Origin: Candidatus Iainarchaeum sp.
Lineage (GTDB): Archaea; Iainarchaeota; Iainarchaeia; Iainarchaeales; JAXPJC01
Reading direction: 5' to 3'
NCBI GenBank assembly: GCA_016187745.1
Contig: JACPJC010000001.1
Span: 1-29,556, forward strand
DNA length: 29,556 nucleotides
Below, one piece after another: positions 3,683-25,010 of the stretch (position 1 is the first letter of the stretch; the number at the start of each line of letters is the position of its first letter). The notes beneath the pieces were generated by a model. That model was given only the letters and a program-made list of their open reading frames with translations. It searched no databases and had not been told where the DNA came from. The translations under genes were made by a program, and so were the position numbers.

Positions 3683-3859
3683 ATTTAGCGCATTTTGGTT
3701 TAATTAAGTTTTGCTGGGCAACCAAAACCCATTTAAACAGCTTTGACAACAGGTTTTATTGATGAACATGAAAAGTGATTGCCTTCCAGCAGCTTGAAAT
3801 TGCTTCTGATTTTAATTACTTATTTAAACCATCTGCAATTCCATATTTATATACTGAAA

Positions 3860-4003
3860 GGGGCATTAGTCTAGCCTGGTCCAGGATTTGCGCTTTGGGA
3901 AAGCCTTTTTCTTTAGGAAAGAAAAAGCCTTGGGAAAAAGAAACTCGGGCTGAAAGGGCTTTCAAATCAGCGCACGACTCCGGTTCAAATCCGGAATGCC
4001 CCA
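3860..4003 (+). tRNA. tRNA-Pro(TGG) with 69-nt intron at 37/38 (3900..3968)
   Basis: Acceptor GGGGCAT/ATGCCCC-A; anticodon stem TGCGC/GCGCA; loop TT-TGG-G|intron|A; T arm TCCGG-TTCAAAT-CCGGA; TTTG/CAAA central helix of a BHB-like motif. Confidence 0.93.
3903..3943. repeat. REP/MITE-like hairpin element, copy 1 (inside the tRNA intron)
   Basis: CTTTTTCTTT-AGG-AAAGAAAAAG 10-bp hairpin followed by CCTTGGGAAAAAGAAA; similar to the copy at 4008..4059. Confidence 0.6.
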
Positions 4004-4007
4004 CACA

Positions 4008-4131
4008 GCCCCTTTTCTTTTTGGAAAAAAGAAAAGGCCCTGGGGTTCAAAAGAAAAAACGTTCAGGTTTTACCCCAAAAGAAAATACATTTGAGGTTAC
4101 CCAAAGAAAAAATAAGTTTCAGGAAAAGAAA
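4008..4131. repeat. REP/MITE-like hairpin element, copy 2, plus degenerate tail repeats in the inter-tRNA spacer
   Basis: CCTTTTCTTTTT-GGA-AAAAAGAAAAGG 12-bp hairpin, then CCCTGGGGTTCAAAAGAAAAA, then AGGTTTTACCCCAAAAGAAAATA and AGGTTACCCAAAGAAAAAATA. Confidence 0.6.
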
Positions 4132-4216
4132 GGGGCGTTAGTCTAGCCTGGTAGGACATGCGCTTGGGGTTCCAAACAACATGTGCATAACCGGGGTTCA
4201 AATCCTCGACGCCCCA
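4132..4216 (+). tRNA. tRNA-Pro(GGG) with 12-nt intron at 37/38 (4170..4181)
   Basis: Acceptor GGGGCGT/ACGCCCC-A; anticodon stem TGCGC/GTGCA; loop TT-GGG-G|TTCCAAACAACA|T; T arm CGGGG-TTCAAAT-CCTCG; 73 nt after intron removal. Confidence 0.9.
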
Positions 4217-4228
4217 CTAAGTGAGAAA

Positions 4229-5020
4229 ATGAATTTCAATAATGCAAAAAGGGTTGTCGTGAAAATAGGGACAAATGCGCTGATGCGCGGCAATGAGCCT
4301 GACACTGGAATCATGGCAGGGCTTGTGGATGATTTGTGCAAGCTGCGCAGGGGAAGAAAGGAAATAATCCTTGTTACCAGCGGGGCAGTGGGCTTCGGTA
4401 AAGGAAGATTAAACTATGAAGGAAATTCTGGTGGAGTGATAATGCAGCAGGTTTTTGCAGCCGTAGGGCAGAATCTGCTGATGCGGAGATACACGGCATT
4501 GTTTGATTTATATTCCCAGCCGATTGCGCAGGTGCTCCTGACGCAGAGGGATTTCGCCAATAAGAATTCCCTGGGCAACCTCAGGAATACGCTGAACAAG
4601 CTGCTTGATCTTGGGGCAATCCCCATCGTTAATGAGAATGATGTAACTGCAACAGAGGAGCTTGCATCAAAGAAGGCCTTTTCGGACAATGACATGCTTG
4701 CGGCATTGGTCGCAAAGACGATGAATGCGGAATTGCTTGTTGTGCTTACTGATGTTGATGGGATATACAGCACAAACCCCAAAACAGATAAAAAAGCCGC
4801 TTTGGTCAGGGAAATAAGTTCCCTAACCGCTCTTGAGCGGATTGCGGCAGGCGGCAAGTCAAAGCCCGGCAGGGGCGGAATGAAAACAAAAATAGATGCA
4901 GCAAAACTCGCATGCAAATCGGGCATAGCGACAGTGATAACAAGAGCAACACACACGGCGCTTTCGGAAATTTATTCCGATAAATTCTCAGGCACAACAA
5001 TTCTCCCAAAGAGTTTATAA
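4229..5020 (+). CDS. proB: Glutamate 5-kinase (no PUA domain)
   Basis: VVVKIGT, VTSGAVGFG, AAVGQNLL, PIVNENDV, FSDNDMLAA, GRGGMKTKI. Start moved to ATG 4229 because the ORF-track start lies inside the tRNA. Confidence 0.93.
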   Translation: MNFNNAKRVVVKIGTNALMRGNEPDTGIMAGLVDDLCKLRRGRKEIILVTSGAVGFGKGRLNYEGNSGGVIMQQVFAAVGQNLLMRRYTALFDLYSQPIAQVLLTQRDFANKNSLGNLRNTLNKLLDLGAIPIVNENDVTATEELASKKAFSDNDMLAALVAKTMNAELLVVLTDVDGIYSTNPKTDKKAALVREISSLTALERIAAGGKSKPGRGGMKTKIDAAKLACKSGIATVITRATHTALSEIYSDKFSGTTILPKSL

Positions 5021-5046
5021 ATAACTTCCAACTAAGTGATTAGCAT

Positions 5047-6519
5047 ATGGCGCAGGAAAACCAGAAGGAAGAGAAAATCACCTTCAATATTGACAAGGAC
5101 AGGAACTTCTCCGAATGGTTCACTGAAATAATCAAGGTGGCGGAGCTTGCGGATATGCGCTACAATGTGAAGGGCTTTGTCGTTTTCCAGCCCTGGAGCG
5201 TGCTTGCAATGGAAGCGATGTACGACTTGTATGAGAGGGCGCTGCAAAGAAAGGGCCACAATCCCATGTGGTTTCCGGCGGTAATTCCCGAAAAGAATTT
5301 TTTCCTTGAAAGGTCGCATGTTGAGGGCTTTGCGCCTGAGGTTTTCTGGATAACAGAGCACGGCGCAAGTGAGAAATTGGAAGAGAAACTGGCGCTGCGC
5401 CCGACTTCAGAAACCGCAATCTACCAGATGTATTCCCTCTGGATACGCTCCTACAAGGATCTGCCCTTCAAGGCATATCAGCGCGCGCAGGTCTGGAGGC
5501 ATGAAACAAAGGCAACAAGGCCTTTTTTGAGAAGCCGCGAATTTTACTGGATTGAGGCGCATGATGTTTTTGCAAATGAGGAAGGCGCAATGAGGCAGGT
5601 CCATGAGGATATGGAAATTGCTGAAGAAATTCTTCACAAAAAATTCGGGGTTCCATTCATTTTTTTCAAGCGCCCCCAGTGGGACAAGTTTGCAGGCGCT
5701 GTTAATACCTATGCTGCAGATGCGATAATGCCCAATGGAAAAATTGTCCAGCAGCCTTCCACGCACCTCCTTGAGCAGAATTTCTCAAAGGCATTTGATG
5801 TGAAATTCAGGGATTCTGACGGGAATGAGAAATATGCATACATTACCTGTTACGGCCCCTGCATTTCGCGCATGTTCGCAAGCGTAATAGCGATGCACGG
5901 CGATTCCAAAGGGCTGAAATTCCCTTTCGAAATTGCGCCGAAGCAGATTGTCATTGTGCCGATTGCCGCGGATAAAAATAATGCGGTCATGAAGAAGGCG
6001 CAGGAGCTTGCGGATTTACTTTCCGCAAATTACCGCGTTGAAATCGATGCAAGCGAAAAAAGCCCCGGGGAGAAATTCTATTACTGGGAGATGAAGGGAG
6101 TTCCCCTGAGGATAGAGCTTGGCCCGAAGGAAGTAAAGGAAAAGAAGCTGACAATTTACAGGCGCGACACGAACAAGAAGGAAGCGGTAAGCGAGAAGCA
6201 GTTGCTGAAGTTTGTTGAAAGCTCCGCAGGGGAAATTACAGAAAATCTCTGCGCCTCGGCGGACAAATATTTCAGCGGAATAATAAAGGATGCCAAAAGC
6301 CTTGATGAGATAAAATCTGCGGTTGACTCCGGGAAAATCGCACGCACGAATTTCTGCTCAACAGAACTTGGCGGAGCAAAATGCGCGGAAACGATTGAAA
6401 AGCAGCTGGGCGCGAGGGTGCGCGGAACGCGAGTTGACAAAAGTGAAAAACCCTCAGGAAAATGCGCAGTCTGCGGGAAAGAAGCGAAAGAAGTCGTTTA
6501 TATTGCGAATGAGTATTAG
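5047..6519 (+). CDS. proS: Proline--tRNA ligase, archaeal/eukaryotic type
   Basis: FSEWFTEII, LALRPTSET, RHETKATRPFLRSREF, EMKGVPLRIELGP; C-terminal Zn domain ending ...IANEY. Confidence 0.97.
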   Translation: MAQENQKEEKITFNIDKDRNFSEWFTEIIKVAELADMRYNVKGFVVFQPWSVLAMEAMYDLYERALQRKGHNPMWFPAVIPEKNFFLERSHVEGFAPEVFWITEHGASEKLEEKLALRPTSETAIYQMYSLWIRSYKDLPFKAYQRAQVWRHETKATRPFLRSREFYWIEAHDVFANEEGAMRQVHEDMEIAEEILHKKFGVPFIFFKRPQWDKFAGAVNTYAADAIMPNGKIVQQPSTHLLEQNFSKAFDVKFRDSDGNEKYAYITCYGPCISRMFASVIAMHGDSKGLKFPFEIAPKQIVIVPIAADKNNAVMKKAQELADLLSANYRVEIDASEKSPGEKFYYWEMKGVPLRIELGPKEVKEKKLTIYRRDTNKKEAVSEKQLLKFVESSAGEITENLCASADKYFSGIIKDAKSLDEIKSAVDSGKIARTNFCSTELGGAKCAETIEKQLGARVRGTRVDKSEKPSGKCAVCGKEAKEVVYIANEY

Positions 6520-6986
6520 CCCACATAGCGGAGCTCATTCTCATTGCCCAAATCCAGCTCCATTATCTCCACAAGCGAATTGTCCAGCCGCTTGCTGTAC
6601 ATTCCGACAAACTCAAACCCGAATTCCCTATAAAGCGCTTTAGCCTTTTCATTTTTTTCCTTCACAAGCAATTGTATGCGCCTGCAGCCAGCGCCCTGCA
6701 TGAATTCAACCGCAAATTTCAGCAGTTCTCTTCCAATTCCGCGCGCGCGGAATTTCTCCTTTACCTCCAATCCATTCAATTTTCCCAGTTCCCCTGAACT
6801 GCCAATCTCAAAATCCACAAACCCCGCAAGTTCCTTATTGGCAACGGCCTTGTATATGAAATAGTTCTTCCTTCCTGTCCTTTCCCTTAATTTTTCAGGA
6901 GTGGCATTCATGTAGGGAAACTCCCTCATGATGAGCCCTGAAATTTCCCTGAAGTCGGAATCCTGCGCCTTCACAATCTGCATCAT
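6516..6986 (-). CDS. GNAT family N-acetyltransferase (RimI-like)
   Basis: VKEKFRARGIGRELL (motif A) and NEKAKALYREFGF (motif B). Confidence 0.9.
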   Translation of the reverse strand: MMQIVKAQDSDFREISGLIMREFPYMNATPEKLRERTGRKNYFIYKAVANKELAGFVDFEIGSSGELGKLNGLEVKEKFRARGIGRELLKFAVEFMQGAGCRRIQLLVKEKNEKAKALYREFGFEFVGMYSKRLDNSLVEIMELDLGNENELRYVG

Positions 6987-7666
6987 TTCACGCTTTTAAT
7001 GAACTGCTGTATTTCCTCCAGGGAAACAGCGCAGCCCCCGTATTTTGCAGCATAGAGCGCTGCTTCAAGCGCGAGCCTGGTTTTTTTGAGCTCCGGCTCA
7101 AAATAGCCCTTCTCATACGCATATGCAATAAGCTCAACGCTTCTCACGATTTTCACATTGACAAACATCCCCTGCAGTTCAGCAAGCTTTTCCGCATCAA
7201 TATCAACCTTGCTTTCATACTTCTCCTCCATCCTGTCCCGCAACCTGTAAGCGTCTTCCACAAGCATGCGCATTGTCCTCTCATCCATAACTATCAGGTC
7301 CGCATTTATTGAATTTGCAAGCGCAAGGGTTTCAATTTCCCCTGCGTGCACCAAACTTATCTTCTCTCGGGAAATCTCAAACAAGTTGTTTGCAAGCCCT
7401 TCTATGATTTTTGCGGAATTTTTTGCAGCGGCATTCAGTTTCATGATTTTTATTGCGCCTGAATCAACAGCATCCTTTATGCGCAGCGCATTAAGCTCAA
7501 AGCGCCTTATCTGCAGGGGATGGGAAACACTTTCATAATAAACGCTCTCGGGAATTATCAATTCGGCATTCTTCTCGGAAGAAATTGCGGAAATTATCCT
7601 CATCAGGCAGTTCTCGGAAACCGAAATCAATGAGCTGGTGTCAAACACAAGTTTCGCCATTTTCAT
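6983..7666 (-). CDS. PIN-domain protein (DUF3368-like), putative toxin/RNase
   Basis: Acidic PIN residues in VFDTSSL, AGEIETLALA and IVMDERTMR; 4-nt overlaps with both neighbours. Confidence 0.75.
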   Translation of the reverse strand: MKMAKLVFDTSSLISVSENCLMRIISAISSEKNAELIIPESVYYESVSHPLQIRRFELNALRIKDAVDSGAIKIMKLNAAAKNSAKIIEGLANNLFEISREKISLVHAGEIETLALANSINADLIVMDERTMRMLVEDAYRLRDRMEEKYESKVDIDAEKLAELQGMFVNVKIVRSVELIAYAYEKGYFEPELKKTRLALEAALYAAKYGGCAVSLEEIQQFIKSVK

Positions 7667-8223
7667 TTCCCCAGCGCCCTTTTCAATTCCTTCAGCCTTT
7701 CCCCGATGCCGAATTTTATTGCTTCCTCGTCATGCATCTTCGTAGCGCCAATGTACTGCAATAATTCCTTTTTGTCTGCCCCCGTCAATTCAGCAGCCCT
7801 GCTCAATGATATTCCAAAGGAATATGCGCGCGAAGCCTGCTTTATGCGCGCCTTGTCATATGTTCCCTGGACATAATTTCCAAGTTCGGAATCAACAGCG
7901 GCAATTCCCCCAATCACCCCGTGCAGCGCCTTCTCAAATCCCTTCAAATCGTTTTTCCCAATCATCGCAAGCGCATTGCCCAAATCCTTCCCAATCTCGG
8001 CCCTGAGCGCATCCCATTTCCCGCTCTCAGCAATATGCACCTTTGTGAGCAGCTTGTGCAGGGAATATGCAATGAGAGAAACCTCGCTCAGCAGGTGGCT
8101 TGATTTCAGCGCCGCAAGCCGGATTGCGTCATTGCTGATGTCCTTCAGCTCTATTATGCTCTGCTTTCCAAAAGCGCCTTCCATGCGCCCTGCAAACTCA
8201 AGCAGCTTTGAATTCTGCTCCAT
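7663..8223 (-). CDS. Helical protein with C-terminal UPF0175-like HTH, putative antitoxin partner of the PIN gene
   Basis: GISLSRAAELTG motif; translationally coupled to the PIN gene. Confidence 0.65.
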   Translation of the reverse strand: MEQNSKLLEFAGRMEGAFGKQSIIELKDISNDAIRLAALKSSHLLSEVSLIAYSLHKLLTKVHIAESGKWDALRAEIGKDLGNALAMIGKNDLKGFEKALHGVIGGIAAVDSELGNYVQGTYDKARIKQASRAYSFGISLSRAAELTGADKKELLQYIGATKMHDEEAIKFGIGERLKELKRALGK

Positions 8224-8286
8224 AGCCTATAATTAGAGCAAGGGTTGTTTTTATAGTTTTGCAGTAATGGTATTGAACACTCCCAA

Positions 8287-8358
8287 TGGGCCTGGGCGGA
8301 ATCGGACCGCCGAGCTCCGCCGTGTGAAGGCGACGTCATGCCATTAGACCACAAGCCC
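8287..8358 (-). tRNA. tRNA-Val(CAC), no intron
   Basis: Reverse complement GGGCTTGTGGTCTAATGGCATGACGTCGCCTTCACACGGCGGAGCTCGGCGGTCCGATTCCGCCCAGGCCCA folds as a cloverleaf; T loop reads TCCGATT. Confidence 0.92.
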
Positions 8359-8376
8359 AAATGCGCAATAGAATAA

Positions 8377-8946: not shown

Positions 8947-10437
8947 ATGGTAAGAAGAATAAGGTTCGTGCGCACCCTTGGGCTTTTTGATGCTGTAATG
9001 CTCGGGGTGGGCTTCATAATTGGCAGCGGAATTTACATAATGCCGCTGCTTGCCGCTCAACAGGCAGGCCCGCTTTCAATATTCGCATGGATTATCGGGG
9101 GAATTTTCTCAATTCTAACAGGGCTCTGCTTTGCTGAATGCGCAATGCATCTCCCCAAAGCCGGGGGATTGTATACTTTCACGCACAAGGCTTTTGGCAA
9201 TTTCAAGGGCTTCATTGCGGGCTATAGCTTCTGGATCGGCTATATAATTACAATTGCAACAGAAATTTTCGCGCTTTCGTGGTATATGCAGTTTTTCGTT
9301 CCCTTCCCGGAATTATGGCGCCTGCTGATTGCAGGCGTTTTTTGCGCGCTGTTCACATACATAAATTACAGGGGCGTAAAACTTGGCGCGGAAATTGACG
9401 ACATATTCACAGTAGGGAAGATGGTTCCATTAATCCTGCTGATTCTTGTCGGGATTTTCTTTTTCAATCCCGGGAATTTCCTCCTGCCGGCAACAAATGC
9501 AGGCGCGCTGGCAAACCCCCTGCAGGGATTCATGCTTGCAATTCTGCTTGCGCTCTGGGCATATCTCGGGGCGGAAATAATTACGGTTCCCGAGGAGGAA
9601 ATAAAGAATGCGCGGAAAACAGTCCCAAAGGCTGTAATTGTTGCAGCGCTTACTGCAATGGCAATCTATGTGCTTGTCGCATTTGTCTCAATGGGCGCGG
9701 TGGACTGGCACAACTTCCAGAATTCCCAGGCTCCGCTCGCGGATATTGCAAACTCCCTTTTCAACGGCTTCGGGGCAATACTCGCACTCGGGGGGCTGAT
9801 TTCAATCCTGGGGGCATTAAATGCGGTAATTCTCGCTTCCGCGCGCATCTCATATGCGATGGCCTCGGACAACCTGTTCCCGAAAGCATTTATGCATCTG
9901 CACAAAGCGCATAAAACCCCCGACAGGGCGCTGATTCTGCATTTCATTATTGCGATTGCGCTTGTGTTTGCCGTGCAGAGCTTTACAGCGCTTGCAGGAT
10001 TGGCGGTTTTGTTCACGCTTATCCCCTATTTGTTCACGTGCGCATCAACACTGAAGCTCCAGCGCAAGCACGGAATTAAGCACATACTGCGCACTCCAAT
10101 AATACCCCTCATTGCAATAATTGCGTGCATAATCCTCATTGCATATTCCCTTGCGCAGAATTTGCTTGCCCCGCTTGCAATCATTGCAGCAGGCTTGCTG
10201 ATTTACTTTGCAATAACGCGCAGGCTGCTGAGGAATTCCGAGCTGCTCAAAATTGAGAATGATGTAAGGGGCATTGAGCATAAGGCGCTCCAGGAATTCT
10301 CGGGAATTGAGCGCATTGCTCTGGAAGTGGAGCGCAAGGCGGAGGAAGATGCAGTTAAAATTGAGAATAAACTGGGGATGCGCAGGCAGGTTGAAAGGGA
10401 GCTTGAGGAAACCTTCAGGAAGAAGAAAAAGAAATAA
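8947..10437 (+). CDS. APC family amino acid permease with charged C-terminal tail
   Basis: IIGSGIY (TM1), PKAGGLY, AYLGAE (TM6), about 12 hydrophobic helices. Confidence 0.92.
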   Translation: MVRRIRFVRTLGLFDAVMLGVGFIIGSGIYIMPLLAAQQAGPLSIFAWIIGGIFSILTGLCFAECAMHLPKAGGLYTFTHKAFGNFKGFIAGYSFWIGYIITIATEIFALSWYMQFFVPFPELWRLLIAGVFCALFTYINYRGVKLGAEIDDIFTVGKMVPLILLILVGIFFFNPGNFLLPATNAGALANPLQGFMLAILLALWAYLGAEIITVPEEEIKNARKTVPKAVIVAALTAMAIYVLVAFVSMGAVDWHNFQNSQAPLADIANSLFNGFGAILALGGLISILGALNAVILASARISYAMASDNLFPKAFMHLHKAHKTPDRALILHFIIAIALVFAVQSFTALAGLAVLFTLIPYLFTCASTLKLQRKHGIKHILRTPIIPLIAIIACIILIAYSLAQNLLAPLAIIAAGLLIYFAITRRLLRNSELLKIENDVRGIEHKALQEFSGIERIALEVERKAEEDAVKIENKLGMRRQVERELEETFRKKKKK

Positions 10438-10459: not shown

Positions 10460-10894
10460 TTAGACTATAATTCTTTTTATTTTCCCTATGGCCTTTTCTG
10501 TTCTGTCATATAATTCAGCAAGGTTGTGCTCAAACTTTACCCTTGTCACATTGTACTGCACTTCCTGCCTTATCCCGCGAAGCAGGTCAAAAAGCGACAA
10601 GTCATCAGAGTTGAGCAGCCCTTTCTTCTCATACTTCTCTTCAATATATTTCTGCAGGCAGTAATGGCTCTTTTCCTTTATGCCGTCAAAATAAAGCAGG
10701 GCTCTTGCCGCATGAAAAATCGCATTGTACATGGCAATTGAAGCCATTTCCTTCTTTTTGATATTTATCAAATCAAATGCTTCATTCAGGAAAAATTCCG
10801 CCTGGTTCATGTCCTGCAATGCCAGGCTCTTGCTTTTGGTTATTCTCTTAAGCAGGCCCTTCTCAAAACATTCGTCAACCTCACTCAATGCCAT
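10460..10894 (-). CDS. HEPN domain protein (toxin-like), module 1
   Basis: YNAIFHAARALL...KSH...RQEVQY, archaeal HEPN family; overlaps the MNT gene. Confidence 0.85.
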   Translation of the reverse strand: MALSEVDECFEKGLLKRITKSKSLALQDMNQAEFFLNEAFDLINIKKKEMASIAMYNAIFHAARALLYFDGIKEKSHYCLQKYIEEKYEKKGLLNSDDLSLFDLLRGIRQEVQYNVTRVKFEHNLAELYDRTEKAIGKIKRIIV

Positions 10895-11438
10895 CGCCCC
10901 ATAAAATAATTGATTTGTTCTTTATTTGGCTTAACAATTCAATATTCTCTTTTTCCATGCTTCTGACCTTCTGCCCTGTCAATATTATTAACTGTATTTC
11001 TTTTTTTAATTCATTGCTGAGCTCCCTTTTAATGCCGCTTAGTTTGAGCATATCCTGCTTGCTTTCAAGAAGGATAGCAAGATCAATGTCGCTATCGCCT
11101 GTAATTTTCCCGCTGGCTGCAGTGCCAAACAAATATATGCCTTTTGGATCCAGCTTAATCAGCTTTGCAAATGCTTTGCAGCACATTATCTTATTAATGA
11201 AAATTATGCTGACGCATTTTGCTGCCACCGGCGAGCTGTAATTCAATTCAAAAAGCACCTTGTTTTTCTGGCTTCCCGTTAAAACAATCCTTCGCTCAGC
11301 AAGTTTTTTCATTATTTTGTGCACACTGCTTGGCGCCAGGCCAGTTTTTTCGGCTAGCTCCCTCAGATAATATTTTCTTTCCAAAAGCGCCTCCAAAAGC
11401 AAAAAAGCGTTTTTATCCAGAAAATCCACGCCGCTCAT
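10881..11438 (-). CDS. HTH + minimal nucleotidyltransferase (MNT antitoxin), module 1
   Basis: YLRELAEKTGLAPSSVH HTH; LFGTAASG...SDIDL nucleotidyltransferase motif. Confidence 0.88.
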   Translation of the reverse strand: MSGVDFLDKNAFLLLEALLERKYYLRELAEKTGLAPSSVHKIMKKLAERRIVLTGSQKNKVLFELNYSSPVAAKCVSIIFINKIMCCKAFAKLIKLDPKGIYLFGTAASGKITGDSDIDLAILLESKQDMLKLSGIKRELSNELKKEIQLIILTGQKVRSMEKENIELLSQIKNKSIILWGDGIE

Positions 11439-11491: not shown

Positions 11492-11519
11492 ACTTATTCA
11501 CTCCGTATTGGAAGACAAG

Positions 11520-11624
11520 TGCACGGGGGCGGATTCGAACCGCCGAACGCACTAAGCGACTGGGTTTCCTAGTTGAAGATTAAACCCCTAGGCCCAGTGG
11601 ATTTGGCCGCTTTCCTACCCGTGC
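11520..11624 (-). tRNA. tRNA-Leu(TAG) with 21-nt intron at 37/38 (11566..11586)
   Basis: Acceptor GCACGGG/CCCGTGC-A; stem CTGGG/CCCAG; loop CC-TAG-G|GGTTTAATCTTCAACTAGGAA|A; canonical BHB (CCTA/TAGG helix, two 3-nt bulges, GTT/AAC); long variable arm; A73. Confidence 0.92.
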
Positions 11625-11684
11625 ATATAAAATAATTACAACAAGCAGCATTTAAATAAATGTCCGTATTTGTTCATATGCATT

Positions 11685-12512
11685 ATGGAAAGCCGGGAAA
11701 AAAAGCTCAAGCTGCTTGAAAAAAATCTGCGGGAAATGCGGAGCGTTTTAATCGCCTTTTCGGGGGGAGTGGACAGCACTTTCCTGCTAAAGGTCGCGCA
11801 TGATGTTCTGGGAAAAAACGCAGTTGCAGTTACCGCCGCTTCGGAAACCTACACAAAATCAGAATTAAGCGATGCAAAAAGCCTTGCAAAGCGGATTGGC
11901 GCAGGGCACATCGTAATTAAAACAAGCGAGCTCAGCATAAAAGGCTTCGCGGAAAACACTGCGGAAAGGTGCTATTTCTGCAAGAGGGAACTGTTCTCAA
12001 AGCTTGCTGAAATTGCAAAGGCAAACAAAATCAATTTTGTCCTTGACGCGTCAAACTATGATGATTTGGATGACTACAGGCCGGGAATGAAGGCTGCAAG
12101 GGAGCTTGGCATAAGAAGCCCCCTGGTTGAAGCAGGGCTGGCAAAGCAGGACATAAGGGGGCTTTCCAGGCGGCTTAAGCTTCCGACATGGGACAAGCCC
12201 TCAATGGCCTGCCTCTCATCAAGATTTCCATACGGCAGTGAAATTAATGCAAGAAAGCTCGGGATGGTTGAGAAGGCGGAGGAGATTTTAAGAAGGATCG
12301 GGCTGAAGCAAGTTAGGGTCAGGCACCATAATGAGATTGCAAGGATTGAAACAGGCAGGCAGGAAATGAAACTGCTTCTGAATCCCCAATCGCTTGAAAA
12401 AGTCGTAAAAGAATTCAAAAAGCTCGGCTTTGCATACGTTACGCTTGATTTGCAGGGCTACAGGAGCGGCAGCATGAACGAAGTCCTGGAGGCTGGGAAA
12501 AATGGGCCCTGA
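11685..12512 (+). CDS. larE: LarE, ATP-dependent sulfur insertase for the nickel-pincer nucleotide cofactor
   Basis: PP-loop AFSGGVDS, RCYFCK, DDYRPG, KPSMACLSSRFPYG, LDLQGYRSGSMN; first in-frame ATG at 11685. Confidence 0.93.
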   Translation: MESREKKLKLLEKNLREMRSVLIAFSGGVDSTFLLKVAHDVLGKNAVAVTAASETYTKSELSDAKSLAKRIGAGHIVIKTSELSIKGFAENTAERCYFCKRELFSKLAEIAKANKINFVLDASNYDDLDDYRPGMKAARELGIRSPLVEAGLAKQDIRGLSRRLKLPTWDKPSMACLSSRFPYGSEINARKLGMVEKAEEILRRIGLKQVRVRHHNEIARIETGRQEMKLLLNPQSLEKVVKEFKKLGFAYVTLDLQGYRSGSMNEVLEAGKNGP

Positions 12513-13236
12513 TGACATCAGAAAATTATTGAAGGATTTGAGGGGCAAAAAACTGGGCATTGAAGGCGCAATGCAGAAACTGAAAGTTCTGCCTTTCGAG
12601 GATCTGGGGTTTGCAAAGATTGATAACCATCGCGCCATCAGGAGGGGCTTTCCCGAAGTGATTTTATGCAGCGGGAAAACAGAGAAACAGATACTCGGGA
12701 TAATAAGGAAAAGCGGCTGCTTTGTTGCAACAAAGGCGAGCAGGAGAATATTTGAGGAAATCAGGCGCTTCAGGAAGGACGCGGAATTCAATGAAGCTGC
12801 CGGAATGGTATTTTCAAAACAACAAAAGAGGAAAATCACGAAGCGGGAAAAAATTCTTGTTGTGAGCGCAGGCACCTCAGATATACCAATAGCAGAGGAA
12901 GCCGCAGTGACCGCGGAGCTTATGGGAAACAGTGTTGAAAGGCTTTATGATGTGGGAGTGGCAGGAATACACAGGCTGTTCGGCAATAAGGAAAAATTCT
13001 TCAGGGCAAATGTGATTGTTGTTGTTGCGGGGATGGAGGGCGCATTGGCAAGCGTTGTTTCAGGCATTACAGACAGGCCGATCATTGCAGTGCCCACAAG
13101 CGTTGGATATGGCGCAAGCTTCAAAGGGATAGCGCCATTGCTTACAATGCTCAATTCCTGCTCCCCCGGGATTGCTGTTGTGAATATAGACAACGGCTTC
13201 GGCGCAGGCTACATGGCAAGCCTGATAAATAAGTGA
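12502..13236 (+). CDS. larB: LarB, NaAD carboxylase/hydrolase (AIR carboxylase-like)
   Basis: RRGFPEV, SAGTSDIPIAEEA, DVGVAGIHRL, AGMEGAL, PTSVGYG, MLNSCSPG, VVNIDNGFGA. Confidence 0.95.
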   Translation: MGPDDIRKLLKDLRGKKLGIEGAMQKLKVLPFEDLGFAKIDNHRAIRRGFPEVILCSGKTEKQILGIIRKSGCFVATKASRRIFEEIRRFRKDAEFNEAAGMVFSKQQKRKITKREKILVVSAGTSDIPIAEEAAVTAELMGNSVERLYDVGVAGIHRLFGNKEKFFRANVIVVVAGMEGALASVVSGITDRPIIAVPTSVGYGASFKGIAPLLTMLNSCSPGIAVVNIDNGFGAGYMASLINK

Positions 13237-13248
13237 GAAAGTGAGAGC

Positions 13249-14406
13249 ATGAAAATCGCATATCTTGACTGCTTTTCTGGGATTTCCGGGGACATGTTCC
13301 TGGGGGCGATGATTGATGCGGGCCTGGATCTGAATGAATTGAAGCGCGAGCTGAAGAAACTGAATCTTAAAAATTATGAAATAAAAACAAAAAAGGCAAA
13401 AAAGAACGGAATCCTTGCAACAAAATTCGATGTGATTGCAAAGGGCAGGCAGCACGGTGCAAGCCTCAGGAAAATAATGGCCCTTATAAATAAGAGCAGG
13501 CTTGGGGAGGATGTGAAGGAAAAGAGCAGGGAAATCTTCATGCGCATTGCAAAGGCCGAAGCGAAAGTCCACGGAACTGCCTTGAGCAAAATCCATTTTC
13601 ATGAGATTGCAGCAATTGATTCAATAATTGACATTGCCGGCGCGGCAATTGCAGTAAAACTGCTAGGGCTTGAGAGGATTTATGCATCTCCCCCTTCCAT
13701 TGGCTCAGGGTTTGTGAAATGCGCGCACGGGATTCTTCCAGTCCCGGGGCCTGCAACAGCCGAGCTGCTGAAAGGAATTCCTCTTGCTTCGGGCTCAGCG
13801 CGCGCAGAGCTTGTTACTCCGACAGGAGCTGCACTGCTTGCAGCGCTTGCAAGCAAATTCGGAGAAATGCCATTAATGAAAATTAAGAGCATTGGCTATG
13901 GGGCGGGCAGGGCTGAATTGGAGCATCCGAATGTGCTGAGGGTTTTTATTGGAGAAGCGGATTCCGAAGGTGAATATGAAAATATAAAACTGATTGAAAC
14001 AAACATAGATGACATGAATCCCGAGATTTATGATTATGCGATGGAGCGGCTTTTCAGTAAGGGCGCGCTTGATGTTTTTCTAACCCCAATATATATGAAA
14101 AAGAGCAGGCCTGCAGTTAAGTTGAGCGTTCTTGCAGATGCAAACAAACTTGATGATATTGTTGAAACGATATTCAATGAAACATCAACATTCGGCGTAA
14201 GGATAAGCGATGTCAAGCGGAGAAAACTTAACAGGGAAATTATAAGCGTTAAAACCAGATATGGCGCAATCAGGATAAAAGTTGGAAGCATGAATGGGAA
14301 AATAAAGGGCATTTCCCCGGAATATGAGGACTGCAAGCGCGCAGCAATCAAACACAACGTGCCTTTAAAGGCGGTATATGATGAAGCAAAGGGGAAATTA
14401 CTTTAA
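13249..14406 (+). CDS. larC: LarC, nickel insertase (single uninterrupted ORF)
   Basis: YLDCFSGISGDMFLGA, HFHEI, AHGILPVPGPAT, ELVTPTGAA, ETNIDDM, MKKSRPA, PEYEDC. Confidence 0.95.
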   Translation: MKIAYLDCFSGISGDMFLGAMIDAGLDLNELKRELKKLNLKNYEIKTKKAKKNGILATKFDVIAKGRQHGASLRKIMALINKSRLGEDVKEKSREIFMRIAKAEAKVHGTALSKIHFHEIAAIDSIIDIAGAAIAVKLLGLERIYASPPSIGSGFVKCAHGILPVPGPATAELLKGIPLASGSARAELVTPTGAALLAALASKFGEMPLMKIKSIGYGAGRAELEHPNVLRVFIGEADSEGEYENIKLIETNIDDMNPEIYDYAMERLFSKGALDVFLTPIYMKKSRPAVKLSVLADANKLDDIVETIFNETSTFGVRISDVKRRKLNREIISVKTRYGAIRIKVGSMNGKIKGISPEYEDCKRAAIKHNVPLKAVYDEAKGKLL

Positions 14407-14919
14407 GAATAGCTTTTTGTAGTTGAATTTCGCAAGTTCCTTTTCAATGCCCCCATAGTTCTTTCCGCAGAGCATGCCGCCCGCAATGAATTCCTCCTGA
14501 GTAACTTCAGCCAGGCAGAATTCAGGCATCCTGAATTTTTGCTTTTCTTCCGCGCTTTCAAATTCAAAATCCACAAGCACCAATCCCTCCAGCGCATCCT
14601 TGAAAACATCAATTTCCGCGGTCCTGCCGTTGCAATTGTAATAATAGCGGAGCTTTCTTATTCTTCTTCCATCAATTCCTGAAAACGCAGCAAATTCCTC
14701 TGCATCCAGTTGGATTGTGTGCTCGTGCAGCTCTGAGGAGTCGCCCTCCGCTACGGGGTATTTTTTCGTAATTTCAAATTTCTCCCCGAGTTTCCTTATC
14801 CTGAGCGTCGGATGCCTCTCCCCCTTTGGAATGTAAATGTCAATTATTTCCATGCTGCGCGCATTTTTCAGCCCCTCAGGAAGGGACTTTGCAAGATATG
14901 TTCTCTCAAGCTCAATCAT
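14398..14919 (-). CDS. CYTH domain protein (triphosphate tunnel metalloenzyme)
   Basis: MIELERTYL (ExExK/R), LRIRK, IRKLRY, EIDVF, LVDFEF; start set at ATG 14919. Confidence 0.88.
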   Translation of the reverse strand: MIELERTYLAKSLPEGLKNARSMEIIDIYIPKGERHPTLRIRKLGEKFEITKKYPVAEGDSSELHEHTIQLDAEEFAAFSGIDGRRIRKLRYYYNCNGRTAEIDVFKDALEGLVLVDFEFESAEEKQKFRMPEFCLAEVTQEEFIAGGMLCGKNYGGIEKELAKFNYKKLFLK

Positions 14920-14971
14920 AATCAGATTCCCTGCAAAACAGATTAAATAACTAACACCTATAAGTAGTATA

Positions 14972-15032
14972 GGCGATGATGAGGTTAACACCTGCTGAAT
15001 CCCAATATGTTGATTCAACTCAACCCTGAGCC
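14972..15032 (+). ncRNA. Box C/D guide sRNA (2'-O-methylation guide)
   Basis: GGC-G-[C: ATGATGA]-12 nt-[D': CTGA]-8 nt-[C': ATGTTGA]-12 nt-[D: CTGA]-GCC; GGC/GCC terminal stem; intergenic; TATA-like TTAAATA about 25 nt upstream. Confidence 0.85.
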
Positions 15033-15084
15033 GCTTCAAATAAATTTATTAAGCCGTTGATGTCCAAACTATTTGAGGGAAGAA

Positions 15085-16359
15085 ATGCTCCAGAAATGCA
15101 TTGATTGCGGAAAGGAATTTCCGGTAAATGAAGTGAGATATGAATGCGGATGCTCCGGGCTGCTTGAAATTGTGCAGGATCTGAAGGCCGCAAAAAAAGC
15201 TGTTTCTAAAAAATTGTTTGAGGGCAGGATGGGCTCAAGGGAATATCCCTACGGAAGCGGGGTATGGAGATACAAGGAACTGATACATCCGCTCATCCCT
15301 GATGAAAAGATTGTCAGCATATGGGAAGGGAATACTGGCATTCATTTCGGCGAGCCCTTAAGGGGATATGTTGGTTTAGGGAATTTTTTTGTAAAGGCGC
15401 AGGGGGAAAATCCCACAGGCAGCTTCAAGGACAACGGGATGACTGTTGCGATTTCGCAGGCGAATTTTTTGGGATTGAGGAAGGTTGCGTGCGCCTCCAC
15501 AGGAAACACCTCCGCCTCAATGGCTGCCTATTGCGCAATTGAAAAAATGAACGGGATTGTTTTCGTTCCCAAGGGGAATATTGCAATGGGAAAGCTCTCG
15601 CAGGCGCTTGCATACGGAGTGAAAACCCTGCAGGTGGAGGGCAATTTTGATGAGGCCTTGAAATTTGTTAGGGCAAATTCCCTGAAATTGGGGATGTATC
15701 TTGTGAATTCAATAAACCCCTTCAGGATAGAGGGCCAGAAATCAATCGCATTTGAAATGGCGCAGCAAATGGGCTGGAAGGCCCCGGATTGGGTCATCAT
15801 GCCCGGGGGCAATTTAGGGAACGCTTCAGCAATAGGAAAAGGCTTCAGGGAACTAAATGAAATAGGATTCGTTGAGAAAATCCCTAGAATTGCGGTTGTG
15901 CAGTCAAAGGGCGCAAATCCTTTCTGCAGGCTCTGGAAGGAGGGGCTTGATTCCCTCATTCCTGTTAATGAGCCTCATACGATTGCCTCTGCAGTAAAGA
16001 TAGGCAACCCTGTCTCCTGGAAAAAGGCGCTGAGGGAAGTGCAAGCATCAAAAGGTGTTGTTGAGGAGGTTTCAGACCAGGAGATAATGGATGCGAAGGC
16101 AATAGTTGATTCAACAGGAATAGGCTGCGAGCCTGCCTCCGCATGCTCCGTAGCAGGAGCAAAAAAGCTTGTTGAAAACGGAATAATAAAATCGCACGAA
16201 GTTGTTGTTGGCCTTCTCACAGGCAACATACTGAAAGACCCCGATGCTACAATAAACTATCACTTAAACAAGCTTGAAGGTATAACCCCGAAATTCCAGA
16301 ACAGGCCGGTTGAAGTCGGGCTTGATTTTGGGCAGATAAAAAAGGCGATTGAGGGCTGA
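15085..16359 (+). CDS. thrC: Threonine synthase
   Basis: NPTGSFKDNG (PLP lysine), CASTGNTSAS, NSINPFRIEGQKS, PGGNLGN, LTGNILKDP; N-terminal Zn-ribbon; GAGG upstream of ATG 15085. Confidence 0.94.
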   Translation: MLQKCIDCGKEFPVNEVRYECGCSGLLEIVQDLKAAKKAVSKKLFEGRMGSREYPYGSGVWRYKELIHPLIPDEKIVSIWEGNTGIHFGEPLRGYVGLGNFFVKAQGENPTGSFKDNGMTVAISQANFLGLRKVACASTGNTSASMAAYCAIEKMNGIVFVPKGNIAMGKLSQALAYGVKTLQVEGNFDEALKFVRANSLKLGMYLVNSINPFRIEGQKSIAFEMAQQMGWKAPDWVIMPGGNLGNASAIGKGFRELNEIGFVEKIPRIAVVQSKGANPFCRLWKEGLDSLIPVNEPHTIASAVKIGNPVSWKKALREVQASKGVVEEVSDQEIMDAKAIVDSTGIGCEPASACSVAGAKKLVENGIIKSHEVVVGLLTGNILKDPDATINYHLNKLEGITPKFQNRPVEVGLDFGQIKKAIEG

Positions 16360-16436
16360 GCGCAGCAGTGCATTAACAGAAGATATTTAAATTCGCACAG
16401 CGGGAATTATATTATACGCCTGCAGGAATTGAAAAA

Positions 16437-16751
16437 ATGCCATTAAAGCCTTTTTGGGAAAAAATAATAAGGTTCAGGAGAAAAGCCAGATATGTCGCGG
16501 ACTTGCAACAGAACCACGAGGTAGATCTTTTTACCGAGACCTTGAAAGAATGGACAAAAGCAGGAAAGAAAGGGCTTGACTGGCCAAAATTTAATGAGCT
16601 CAGGAAATTACAAAAACAAATAGCACCACTGCTTCCAAAAGCCGCACTGCTTGAAGTTGATAAACTTTACGAGAACTATAAAGAAAGCAAGCCTAGCATC
16701 GATTTTCAAACATATGTACAAAACCTTGTTACTCAGAAAAAGCGCATATAA
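16437..16751 (+). CDS. Small basic hypothetical protein
   Basis: Clean ORF in the gap with AGGA upstream; no family recognised. Confidence 0.6.
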   Translation: MPLKPFWEKIIRFRRKARYVADLQQNHEVDLFTETLKEWTKAGKKGLDWPKFNELRKLQKQIAPLLPKAALLEVDKLYENYKESKPSIDFQTYVQNLVTQKKRI

Positions 16752-16825
16752 CGACAAATAAATTTATTAATCCCGGCGCCTTTATCTTACTGGCATTTGA
16801 TTGATTAAATTGCGGGGTGATAATA

Positions 16826-17215
16826 GTGCCTTATATAGATTCGCAGATATTCAGGAAAAAAGGGGAGAAGAAAAATCTCACAATTACGCTTTCCGAGGGC
16901 GAGCCGATTCTCTCTTCAATAAAAACAGCAATGGCGCAGAACAAAATAGGGGAAGTGAAAGTTGAGGACATGTCGGGAGAGGTAAAGGAAGCGACAATAA
17001 GCTTCATGAGCGGCAGCAAATACGAGTGCAAGGAGCTGCGCAACCAGGGAATACTGCGCGCCTCCGGGAACTTCAAGCTGAATTTTGACGAGCTTTACGG
17101 GAACATGCACATCTCAACAGCGGGGAAAAGCCCGATTACGGGAACTTTTGTGAAGGGAAAGGCCGCTGACGGTCTTGAAATAAAAATGAGCTTTGTTGAA
17201 ATAAAGGACAAGTAA
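16826..17215 (+). CDS. PPC/DUF296-like domain protein
   Basis: ITLSEGEPILSSIK...GEVKEATI...GNF...NMHIS pattern; GGTGA ribosome-binding site supports GTG start at 16826. Confidence 0.65.
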   Translation: MPYIDSQIFRKKGEKKNLTITLSEGEPILSSIKTAMAQNKIGEVKVEDMSGEVKEATISFMSGSKYECKELRNQGILRASGNFKLNFDELYGNMHISTAGKSPITGTFVKGKAADGLEIKMSFVEIKDK

Positions 17216-17251
17216 TATTAATCAGAAGCGCGCTATTTAATTTTCGGTTCT

Positions 17252-17944
17252 ATGCAATCAATGCTCAATTTCGGAAAAAGCGAAAAAGGCAAAATCCTCG
17301 CGCTCCTGCGCGCTTTTCCGCGGATAGAAACAAAAACCGAATTTGAGGAATTCCGCTGCAAAATCGGAAATTCTGTTGCAACGCTCTATCGCACGGGAAA
17401 GCTAACAATACAGGGCACAGACCATGAGGATGTAAAGCAGAGGCTGCTTTCCGGGCTCGGCTTGTCCGAGGAGCTTACCCTCGGAATTGATGAGGTTGGG
17501 CGCGGAGAGCGCACAGGGCCCTTTGTAATGGCAGCGCTTTTGGGCGATGCAAACAAATTGCGCGAACTGCGCGACAGCAAGAAAACAAGCGACATAAAGG
17601 GCAAATTCGGGCTTGCGAGCGCAAACAGCCTTGCTACTATGGTTTTCATGGTTAATAGTAACTATATAGATAGATTGAGGGAAAAAGGTAAGACATTAGA
17701 CGAAATAGAGTGCGAATTTATTAAGGGCAGCAGGCTAATTCTTGATGGTTTGGGCGAAAAAGTGCAGATTAAGGTGGATGGCAATGCGTTAAAACCCTGC
17801 CCGGGAGGCATTACCTTCATCCCGAAGGGGGATGATTTGGAGCCGGCAATAGGCGCTGCGAGCGTTGTTGCAAAGCATTTGCGCGAGATTTCGGGGGATA
17901 AAAATGAAAGGAAAACCTGGAACAAAAAGGAGGGGTCAAAATAG
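17252..17944 (+). CDS. Type 2 ribonuclease H with N-terminal TBP-like domain (RNase HIII-like)
   Basis: GIDEVGRGE..GP, LRDSKK, VDG, KGD...IGAASVVAK; N-terminal ATLYRTGKLTIQG resembles the RNase HIII TBP-like (DUF3378) domain. Confidence 0.82.
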   Translation: MQSMLNFGKSEKGKILALLRAFPRIETKTEFEEFRCKIGNSVATLYRTGKLTIQGTDHEDVKQRLLSGLGLSEELTLGIDEVGRGERTGPFVMAALLGDANKLRELRDSKKTSDIKGKFGLASANSLATMVFMVNSNYIDRLREKGKTLDEIECEFIKGSRLILDGLGEKVQIKVDGNALKPCPGGITFIPKGDDLEPAIGAASVVAKHLREISGDKNERKTWNKKEGSK

Positions 17945-18102
17945 CGGATAAAAAGATTGTCGTGGAAAAGGCTCCGGACAGGAAAGAAAAAGAAAAGCTG
18001 ATGATTGAGGGATATAAAAAAATGGCAAAACTTGACGAGAAAATTGAGAAAGAAATGAAGCATGTAAGCAAAGAAGCGGATGCGATACCGGATGGATGTT
18101 AA
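17941..18102 (+). CDS. Small EndoAI/MazE-like antitoxin-like protein (53 aa, start uncertain)
   Basis: Below the ORF-track cutoff: IADKKIVVEKAPDRKEKEKLMIEGYKKMAKLDEKIEKEMKHVSKEADAIPDGC; GGAGG 7 nt before ATA at 17941; the EGYKKMA helix resembles MazF-binding antitoxin tails. Confidence 0.5.
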   Translation: MADKKIVVEKAPDRKEKEKLMIEGYKKMAKLDEKIEKEMKHVSKEADAIPDGC

Positions 18103-18119
18103 ATAGGCAAATCCATTAT

Positions 18120-24582: not shown

Positions 24583-25010
24583 TTTAATTTGCACAATCCC
24601 CTTATTTTCCCTGTGAATTCCTTCGCTTTCCCGATTGAGGTTTTTGCTTCCCCCTCGCCGATTGATTTTATTTCCCCATAAACAACATCGTGCCTCCTTA
24701 CCCTGTATCTGTTGAATGCATAAATCAGCTGGCCTGATTCGGCAGGCAGCATTGCCGCGCAGAACTGCACAACAGCAACATGGTGCGATTCGCTGAGTGC
24801 GCGGTAGCCCTTTGCAGCCATAAGCGCCCTGCCTGCAGAGAGCATTGCATTGTAAGCAGCGACAAATGCCCAGTCGGCGTGCCCTGCATTTAAAATATCT
24901 GCTGCCGCAACAAGGTCCTTCTCTGCGGATTTTATGAGCTCTTTCGCAGAATTTGCATCAGCGTCAACTTTTTCTATCAAATGCTTCTGCAGCAGTTCTT
25001 TCAAATCCAT
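24576..25010 (-). CDS. HEPN domain protein (toxin-like), module 2
   Basis: AYNAMLSAGRALM..KGYR...HH...RRHDVVY. Confidence 0.87.
   Translation of the reverse strand: MDLKELLQKHLIEKVDADANSAKELIKSAEKDLVAAADILNAGHADWAFVAAYNAMLSAGRALMAAKGYRALSESHHVAVVQFCAAMLPAESGQLIYAFNRYRVRRHDVVYGEIKSIGEGEAKTSIGKAKEFTGKIRGLCKLNQ

Follow-up and report, generated by a model that had tools for sequence, protein, structure and literature searches.

A mirrored three-tract hairpin module in the intron and 3′ trailer of an archaeal tRNA-Pro(UGG) gene and in related DPANN archaea

The gene for tRNA-Pro(UGG) on an archaeal contig (Candidatus Iainarchaeum sp., JACPJC010000001.1) carries an A/T-rich hairpin inside its intron and a second hairpin of the same type just behind its 3′ end, which raises the question of whether the two are related and how they came to be there. 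The stretch of DNA analyzed, termed the window below, is 29,556 nt long with about 46% G+C, and its genes include an ATP-dependent DNA ligase, an archaeal-type prolyl-tRNA synthetase (ProRS) and Alba. The source genome is seen here only through these 29.5 kb. A preliminary description had noted the two hairpins; the sequence is as described there, and the patterns that the hairpins share occur in the window at these two sites only. Both hairpins belong to a longer arrangement of three tracts. The explanation favored here, to which we give as a whole about an even chance, is that both window copies are members of a small family of A/T-rich fold-back modules, which has been propagated locally and whose three-tract fold is selected.

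In the intron copy, the pyrimidine arm (Y; C-5T-C-3T, + strand, 3905..3914) is followed by the loop AGG (3915–3917) and by the complementary purine arm (R1; 3A-G-5A-G, 3918..3927), and all 10 of the 10 pairs are Watson-Crick. In the trailer copy, the corresponding arms on the + strand are CC-4T-C-5T (Y; 4011..4022) and 5A-G-4A-GG (R1; 4026..4037), which pair at 12 of 12 positions around the loop GGA (4023–4025). The arms were located by inverted-repeat and hairpin scans and by a pair check, and among the 25 hairpins detected in the window these two are the longest. The trailer element had been placed five nucleotides after the tRNA; this holds for its outer pair G4008-C4040, which begins 5 nt past discriminator A4003, but the 12-bp hairpin itself begins 8 nt past it.

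Each hairpin is followed by a third tract, a feature absent from the preliminary description. In the intron copy, a second purine tract (R2; G-5A-G-3A, + strand, 3934..3943) lies behind the linker CCTTGG (3928–3933). It repeats R1 exactly in reverse order and, read in parallel, is complementary to Y at all 10 positions. In the trailer copy, R2 (4A-G-5A, + strand, 4049..4058, with a sixth A at 4059) follows an 11-nt linker (4038–4048) and complements Y in parallel at 10 of 12 positions; the ten are consecutive, and the two outermost positions fail. In both copies R2 thus mirrors R1, being its reverse and not its reverse complement. In the trailer the mirror reads 6A-G-4A (including a loop A) and then 4A-G-6A. 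The module as a whole runs from a pyrimidine arm through a 2–3-nt loop, a complementary purine arm and a 5–11-nt linker to a mirror purine tract, over 35–50 nt in total.

This order of tracts is, by sequence, that of a class II (purine-motif) intrastrand triplex motif, and the opposite strand has the form of a class IV pyrimidine-motif triplex. Class II motifs are described as a 5′ pyrimidine domain, a purine domain and a reverse-Hoogsteen purine domain, forming A.A-T and G.G-C triads over stems of 6–15 nt with at most one mismatch (PMC4666352). Both copies fall within this class by stem and triads, the intron copy with 10 of 10 triads and the trailer copy with 10 consecutive good triads of 12. 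The loops are given limits of 1–6 nt (ITxF) or 0–10 nt (Hoyne et al., quoted in PMC4666352). Those of the intron copy (3 and 6 nt) are inside both limits, and those of the trailer copy are 3 and 11 nt, of which the second is beyond both.

Within the window, the pattern TTTTCTTT-N3-9-AAAGAAAA has two matches, which are exactly these copies, and none in 100 shuffles. A 17-mer common to both copies has two exact matches, and six with up to three mismatches compared to 0.93 expected. Aligned with one another, intron and trailer agree at 36 positions over 46 columns with two gaps.

To place the two copies in a wider setting, genome contigs were searched with a ProRS query, which yielded 80 related DPANN loci (1.15 Mb). 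The window and these loci, 1.18 Mb in total, form the set for all family statistics given here. Modules were counted strictly when they had a stem of at least 8, a full-length mirror tract and at most one mismatch. The analysis was kept to stems of 8 nt or more, since looser censuses are dominated by noise from Lys/Glu-rich coding DNA; those set aside were of purine mirror 7-mers, of gapped relaxed hairpins (152 candidates, 21 of them mirror and 21 direct) and of stems of 6–7 nt. There are 10 strict elements in the set, and 13 when copies read by eye are included. The same criterion applied to direct repeats gives four, every one of which is a sub-stem of those 10 elements.

The mirror relation is also seen in how the tracts vary. 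In the set, 14 perfect hairpins have a pyrimidine 5′ arm and a stem of 8 bp or more, and 14 hairpin sides with a purine run at most 32 nt downstream were used for a permutation test. Matched pairs of run and mirrored arm have an identity of 0.86 compared to 0.77 for mismatched pairs, and none of 20,000 permutations reaches the observed sum. The direct-repeat control gives 0.75 for both, with the observed value reached by 11,564 of 20,000 permutations. The lengths of the A runs around the interrupting G residues are exactly reversed from one purine tract to the next: 3-G-5 / 5-G-3 in the window intron and in L014:854, 6-G-4 / 4-G-6 in the window trailer, 2-G-5 / 5-G-2 in L003 and in the leader copy of L020, 2-G-3-G-4 / 4-G-3-G-2 in L014:1011, and 2-G-4-G-5 / 5-G-4-G-2 in L050. 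The mirror relation therefore covaries within copies, the three tracts changing together. A model of alternative hairpins or attenuation, with the third tract competing against the second for the T-rich arm, was considered and rejected, because it predicts a direct repeat and the direct control shows no signal.

Across the DPANN archaea in which it occurs (Iainarchaeota, Micrarchaeota and others), the family is almost confined to tRNA introns, trailers and leaders, with one copy in a 23S rRNA gene; that a family exists beyond the window pair, as had been proposed, is borne out. Nine of the 10 strict elements lie in or beside tRNA genes, and the tenth (L078) lies in apparent coding DNA and is probably due to chance. 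Pyrimidine/purine hairpins of at least 8 bp are found up to 45 nt downstream of 3 of 67 ARAGORN tRNAs, compared to 6 of 20,000 random 45-mers, an enrichment of about 150-fold. In all seven intron copies read (those of the window, L001, L002 and L050, and three in L014), the orientation is the same, with the pyrimidine arm first. This arm begins 4–7 nt past the 5′ exon in introns and 3–8 nt past the mature 3′ end in trailers. The sites of the family are parts that processing would remove or that lie outside the mature RNA.

The closest relatives share the setting of the window copies. In a ProRS tree, the window falls in a clade of 97% support with L001, L004, L011, L003 and L020, several of which are labelled Iainarchaeota; inside this clade only the sister pair L003/L020 is resolved. 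The gene order tRNA-Pro(UGG), tRNA-Pro(GGG), ProRS is conserved in L001, L003 and L020. As an aside, the proline cluster of the window (3860–6519, all on the + strand) includes a kinase gene that starts about 12 nt past the second tRNA, and no kinase is found in the clusters of L001, L003 and L020. The tRNA-Pro(UGG) gene of L001 is interrupted at the same site by an intron of 77 nt, which has the same build: 6T, loop, 6A, the linker CCTGGG and 7A. L003 and L020 have three-tract modules in tRNA-Pro trailers, and L020 has an additional, inverted copy (9593–9626) directly upstream of tRNA-Pro(UGG).

Further copies lie in other loci. L054 has a module in a tRNA trailer, and L002 has one in a tRNA intron at the canonical site (tRNA 2829–2953, Rfam 40.2 bits). 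In the Micrarchaeota loci, L014 contains modules in three multi-intron tRNA genes and one inverted leader copy (1011–1053), and L018 and L044 have modules within multi-intron tRNA genes as well. The RNase P RNA gene of L014 (1340–1549, − strand) lies just upstream of a CAU tRNA with several introns, and one of the modules forms the leader of this tRNA. Also in Micrarchaeota loci, L050 has a module, degenerate in L029, in the D-loop intron of a tRNA-Gln(UUG)-like gene. These two genes (L050 6421–6551 and L029 11698–11893) have non-canonical D-loop introns, and L029 also one in the T loop; they were found by our own reading and were missed by ARAGORN and Rfam. Finally, the module of L071 (5826–5857) lies within the large-subunit (23S) rRNA gene (4761–7881).

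Some observations concern the linkers. The linker and the start of the third tract in the trailer copy (4041–4055) resemble the anticodon loop and intron start of tRNA-Pro(GGG) (4165–4179) at 13 of 15 positions, and positions 3928–3937 of the intron copy share an 8-nt exact repeat with 3893–3902 of tRNA-Pro(UGG) itself. We considered whether the linkers CCTTGGG and CCCTGGGG are copies of a proline anticodon loop. The same linker type is found in modules of non-proline tRNAs (L014, L018, L044), and the likeness may be coincidence. In L001, a CfrBI-family restriction endonuclease and a DNA methylase are encoded at 564–2914 (− strand); the CfrBI site, CCWWGG, matches the CCTTGG of the window intron linker, probably by coincidence.

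Copies come and go between close relatives. The window and L001 have the tRNA-Pro(UGG) intron, and L003, L020 and L011 do not; all five are in the clade of 97% support. Comparison of the orthologous intron, suggested in the preliminary description, thus finds presence/absence variation. Aligned with one another, L003 has an insertion of about 70 nt after tRNA-Pro(GGG), made up of a module and a G+C-rich hairpin, at a site that is empty in L020. Conversely, L020 has a homologous module and G+C hairpin after tRNA-Pro(UGG), where L003 retains only a hairpin, and the leader copy of L020 is missing from L003. The G+C-rich hairpin, in which a 7-bp stem closes a 4-nt loop and the differences between the sisters are compensatory, lies directly 3′ of the module at L003 865–885 and L020 9741–9760, and it moves with the module. 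The homologous modules of L003 and L020 differ by concerted change in all three tracts (5T/5A/5A compared to 4T/4A/4A) and in their outer stem, where the changes compensate each other. Over 13 copies, identity is 0.72 within lineages compared to 0.65 between lineages, a difference reached by 89 of 20,000 label shuffles. This pattern of turnover and identity is that of a small repeat family copied within lineages with its fold maintained.

The intron copy is best understood from the tRNA gene that holds it. This gene comprises a 5′ exon (3860..3899, + strand; positions 1–37, with the anticodon TGG at 3896–3898), a 69-nt intron at the canonical 37/38 site (3900..3968) and a 3′ exon (3969..4003; position 38 to discriminator A4003, with CCA not encoded), which give a spliced length of 75 nt. 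ARAGORN, when introns are allowed, places a tRNA with a long intron at 3860–4004; default ARAGORN and Rfam at gathering score miss it and report tRNAs in the window only at 4132–4216/7 and, for tRNA-Val, at 8286–8359. The anticodon is by our own reading, and the call made by ARAGORN differs from it, being Pro(GGG) with a 67-nt intron, the stem moved by one pair and the splice sites off by 1–2 nt. Under the Pro(UGG) reading, position 26 is a single nucleotide and the variable loop has 4 nt, matching the neighboring tRNA-Pro(GGG), and the acceptor (7/7), anticodon (5/5) and T stems (5/5) pair fully.

Archaeal splice sites lie in a bulge-helix-bulge, defined as a 4-bp helix between two 3-nt bulges that bear them (PMC4090602). 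In the pre-tRNA, a pairing check predicts such a structure in near-canonical form: the central helix 3894–3897/3963–3966 has 4 of 4 pairs, and the bulges are GGA (3898–3900, 5′) and TCA (3967–3969, 3′). The outer intron helix noted before is present with 6 of 6 pairs (3900–3905/3957–3962), and in this best-paired register the 5′ bulge is 2 nt and not 3. The predicted fold of the pre-tRNA is −54.8 kcal/mol (z −3.49). With cloverleaf exons, the 37/38 site and this predicted structure, 3900–3968 qualifies as an archaeal tRNA intron. Archaeal tRNA introns are reported to span 11–129 nt (PMC4090602), and because the published medians are mostly 12–25 nt, one of 69 nt counts as long. The module makes up about 39 of its 69 bases, which agrees with the earlier suggestion that such elements could be a source of expanded introns. 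A C/D-box guide RNA within the intron was considered and rejected, as CTGA is present at 3950–3953 but no box C could be read. A permissive Rfam scan of 3700–4300 gave only tRNA and chance-level miRNA-type matches.

These features suggest how the modules might persist and spread. Nested within a near-canonical bulge-helix-bulge, the intron copy would by its predicted pairing be in a splice-competent setting, and its removal by the splicing endonuclease would make it harmless there. The T-rich arm of the trailer copy (4T-C-5T, 4013–4022) begins 10 nt past A4003; it fits the position predicted for an oligo-T terminator and probably serves as one. A general role of the module as tRNA terminator was rejected, in that most tRNAs have no module. 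Local propagation would occur by some form of copying, most likely by recombination or duplication that involves the tRNA-Pro genes, which resemble one another, and the sequences beside them, or by mobility at the level of the intron. Recombination between tandem tRNA-Pro genes moves trailers without a transposase, yet it leaves the copies in unrelated tRNAs and in 23S rRNA unexplained. The intron copy would then be a paralogue of the trailer-type module, whose arrival lengthened the intron. The property under selection would be the three-tract fold, probably as a triplex of DNA, formed by the non-template strand when it is displaced; DNA is preferred to the transcript here because RNA is reported to be unable to form triplexes of the purine motif (PMC4666352).

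Several observations weigh against this explanation. The local alignment of intron and trailer scores 32 compared to 20.9 ± 3.5 for dinucleotide shuffles, a score reached by 24 of 2000. As single-stranded DNA, the + strand modules fold with z-scores of −1.0 and −1.8, and 27 of 200 and 12 of 200 shuffles fold as well; the − strand modules fold more strongly (z −3.6 and −2.35), and the whole trailer RNA is unexceptional (z −0.36). ViennaRNA models no base triples. For stems of 6–7 nt, mirror (105) and direct (116) counts are at the level of noise, so the evidence comes from about a dozen long copies, several of which are related by descent (L003/L020). In the window, no module is found at tRNA-Val, at the tRNA on the complement of 11519–11624 or at tRNA-Pro(GGG), and among the loci only 5 of 67 tRNA trailers have a hairpin of at least 7 bp. 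Runs of at least five T within 25 nt after tRNAs are only about twofold enriched (13 of 67 compared to 9.7%). Moreover, the 5T-C-3T tract in the intron should provoke some termination, which the terminator reading leaves unexplained, and triplex formation remains a prediction from sequence. Several tRNA gene structures (L014, L029, L050, L018, L044) are by-eye readings missed by Rfam; for the multi-intron genes of L014, L029, L050 and L018, acceptor, anticodon and T arms were read by eye, and Rfam detected none of these genes. The count for the source genome comes from the 29.5-kb window alone, the closest ProRS among the 80 loci being 70% identical to that of the window.

A bolder extension of the favored explanation is that the module is a mobile unit, defined by structure, that seeds or enlarges tRNA and rRNA introns in DPANN archaea. 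Its copies would enter sites open to splicing or trimming, possibly guided there by triplex pairing between the hairpin and a matching purine tract that the target already has. A tract of this kind lies beside the insertion point both at the empty L020 site and in the window intron as inferred before insertion. We regard this extension as rather unlikely; if true, it would provide a concrete route by which archaeal tRNA introns arrive.

Among the rival explanations, the one that survives best, though it too is improbable and already disfavored, is that there is no family at all. The trailer hairpin would be a T-rich terminator with a fortuitous A-rich complement, the intron hairpin an ordinary stabilizing stem, and their likeness a coincidence of low-complexity sequence; the finding would be ordinary if the likeness came to only a terminator-like hairpin and base composition. 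The modest significance of the alignment, folds that are unexceptional for their composition and three-tract matches at noise level for short stems all fit this account, as does the spacer behind the trailer copy, which has four A-rich tracts with G placed differently. In addition, A/T-rich triplex motifs are reported to be common by chance (PMC4666352). Against it stand the exact shared patterns, which occur at only two places in the window with none expected, and the fact that L001, in its matching intron, and other lineages show the three-part build again, with a linker of similar kind. It is disfavored by the covariation of the mirror over 14 hairpin sides, with none for the direct control, by the roughly 150-fold enrichment beside tRNAs for stems of at least 8 bp, and by the strict counts of mirror and direct repeats.

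The preliminary description had proposed a REP/MITE-like element (REP, repetitive extragenic palindromic; MITE, miniature inverted-repeat transposable element), mobilized in trans by an HUH enzyme of the TnpA/RAYT type and surviving only where processing removes its copies. The location of the copies and their turnover partly support a small, dynamic palindromic element harbored where processing removes it; the REP/MITE/HUH identity is not supported, and we consider a non-autonomous transposable element of this kind a doubtful explanation. It would account for presence/absence at matching sites of sister genomes, for the spread of copies over various tRNAs and intron positions and into a 23S rRNA gene, and for the greater likeness of copies within lineages than between them. 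An 8-nt perfect direct repeat (3895–3902/3930–3937) flanks the 27-nt intron palindrome in the manner of a target duplication, but it is largely forced, arising where the proline anticodon loop meets a linker of the type CC-Y-W-GGG, which is also found in the non-proline modules of L014, L018 and L044. No flanking repeat is found at the trailer copy or at the L003 insertion, and target-site duplication is not consistent. MITEs are bounded by terminal inverted repeats and a target-site duplication; the hairpin forms an inverted repeat by itself.

Copy number and gene content also speak against a transposable element. REP elements associated with RAYT enzymes occur in tens to hundreds of extragenic copies per genome, and the RAYT gene typically lies between such repeats. 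Here the copies are few (two in 29.5 kb, 10 strict in 1.18 Mb), and at 65–80% likeness they are not the near-identical copies expected of a MITE; the four copies of L014 are at most about 75% alike. No Y1-HUH (RAYT), DDE or other transposase gene was found among the 35 open reading frames (ORFs) of the window or the 80 ORFs of six module-bearing loci (L001, L002, L003, L014, L020, L050), 115 in all, and the supposed HUH mobilizer is thus unsupported. The sole mobility genes in these loci are two LAGLIDADG ORFs in 16S rRNA insertions of L014. There, the 16S rRNA gene (14841–18606, − strand) spans 3.77 kb compared to a 1478-nt model, with the ORFs at 16306–16863 and 17080–17769 inside it. A transposable element would also leave the mirrored third tract unexplained.

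Somewhat less probable still is a function at the level of RNA, in which the module is a structured RNA that emerges from tRNA processing as a circularized intron or as a leader or trailer fragment, the leader form perhaps as a U.A-U triple helix at the new 3′ end. Such a helix is known from the RNA 3′ ends of MALAT1 and MEN-beta. The leader copies of L020 (9593–9626) and L014 (1011–1053) would read in RNA as two U-rich tracts followed by an A-rich tract and end 3–4 nt before the RNase P site, and long-term retention with compensatory change suggests a function for the host. Pyrimidine-motif intrastrand triplexes are able to form in RNA (PMC4666352). However, both window copies and all seven intron copies are oppositely oriented and would need a purine-motif triplex, the form reported not to occur in RNA (PMC4666352), and no Rfam family matches the module. 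Finally, it is very improbable that the module is a relic of a split and fused tRNA, with the T-rich arm as the old terminator of the 5′ half and the intron as a fused terminator and leader: the similar spacing of the arm behind 5′ exons (4–7 nt) and mature 3′ ends (3–8 nt) and the split tRNAs known in a DPANN archaeon (PMC4090602) would fit, but a 69-nt intron is too short to hold a promoter, the tRNA-Pro(UGG) gene of relatives is uninterrupted, D-loop introns and a 23S rRNA gene have modules as well, and the mirror tract is unexplained.

Behind the trailer copy, an A-rich spacer (4060..4131, + strand) contains further purine tracts at 4075–4085, 4100–4110 and 4120–4127, which form a direct-repeat family that is not significant alone. 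The two degenerate tails described there before are not borne out as a repeat: the tail motif CCCAAAGAAAA has three window matches compared to 2.33 expected, 45 of 100 shuffles have as many, and TRF finds no tandem array in the spacer. A tandem-repeat origin of the spacer was rejected on the same two grounds. Two stretches of the spacer, 4073–4082 (CCCCAA...) and 4098–4105 (CCCAAAG), have sequences complementary to those of the tRNA-Pro(GGG) and tRNA-Pro(UGG) anticodon loops, and both precede the kinase and ProRS genes; this motif is not conserved in the spacers of L003 or L020 and is not significant as a motif.

The second tRNA of the cluster, tRNA-Pro(GGG) (4132..4216, + strand; Rfam tRNA 48.1 bits and ARAGORN, with anticodon and intron by our own reading), has a 12-nt intron (4170–4181) without a module. 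It is followed on the + strand by an amino-acid kinase family gene, glutamate-5-kinase-like (4229..5020; Pfam AA_kinase, 1.3e-43), and by the prolyl-tRNA synthetase (5047..6519; Pfam tRNA-synt_2b, HGTP_anticodon and ProRS-C_1). The kinase start at 4229 is inferred, since the ORF start at 4181 overlaps the tRNA. The window has three intron-bearing tRNAs, whose introns differ from each other. The third, on the complement of 11519–11624, has a 27-nt intron and a long variable arm; its ARAGORN label of Pro(AGG) is doubtful, and Rfam at gathering score misses it. Elsewhere in the window, two pairs of genes for a HEPN protein and an MNT-type nucleotidyltransferase (with N-terminal HTH) at 10460–11438 (−) and 24576–25563 (−) are toxin-antitoxin-like, and three adjacent genes at 11670–14406 (+) carry Pfam PP-loop ATPase, AIR-carboxylase-like and nickel-insertion (LarC-type) domains. 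These three resemble the LarE/LarB/LarC set for the nickel-pincer cofactor.

Compared to known systems, the module resembles REP (RAYT) elements and MITEs in being small, palindromic, non-coding, repeated and variable between relatives. It differs from them in the lack of an HUH gene in the loci examined, in its low copy number, in having no consistent target duplication, in the mirrored third tract, which neither class has, and in its location inside stable-RNA genes. Archaeal oligo-T terminators are T runs on the non-template strand just past a gene and require no hairpin or downstream purine tracts. The 4T-C-5T arm of the window trailer, and the 5T or 4T found 3–5 nt past tRNA-Pro in L003 and L020, are like such terminators. 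Unlike them, the same module also occurs within an intron, where termination would be harmful.

Transposed tRNA introns are known from Thermoproteales, and the mechanism of their spread is described as unknown in the available parts of the two reports (PMC4090602; bioRxiv 10.64898/2026.10.13.758758), the second of which takes at least 80% identity in different tRNA species as its test. In the DPANN archaea studied here, by contrast, copies are 65–80% similar, and what is shared is not a whole intron but a short module, which also lies in trailers and leaders. In the open-access literature, nothing was found that links triplex-type or mirror-repeat modules to archaeal tRNA introns, and no intron sequence families were found in work on DPANN tRNA introns; PMC3239211 does not mention hairpins or A- or U-rich introns. 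The Asgard preprint, as far as its available part goes, tested several routes of intron arrival, found none to be general and leaves the question open (bioRxiv 10.64898/2026.10.13.758758). A module that is common to the introns of different tRNAs, to tRNA flanks and to a 23S gene, and that comes and goes between sister genomes, offers a marker by which the growth or gain of introns in DPANN archaea can be traced.

The closest likeness of build is to the bacterial potential intrastrand triplex elements BoxC, PIT and TMECO, which are reported to form triplexes in vitro, to be linked to local genomic instability and to have no known function (Holder et al. 2015, PMC4666352). In these elements, too, a pyrimidine stem, a loop, a purine stem, a loop and a second purine stem follow one another on one strand, with stems of 9–13 nt and at most one bad triad, and the opposite strand has the pyrimidine-motif form. 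They are likewise non-coding intergenic repeats, with local rearrangement between close relatives. The bacterial elements are G/C-rich and proteobacterial or cyanobacterial, while the DPANN module is A/T-rich, with A.A-T triads and one or two G.G-C, and is archaeal, low in copy number, linked to tRNA and rRNA genes and present within introns; some copies have a longer second loop, of up to 11 nt. In the survey, A/T-rich motifs were largely attributed to chance and set aside, and for such motifs it could not show selection (PMC4666352). The three-way compensatory pattern seen in the DPANN module would be rare natural evidence of selection on an A/T-rich intrastrand triplex architecture.

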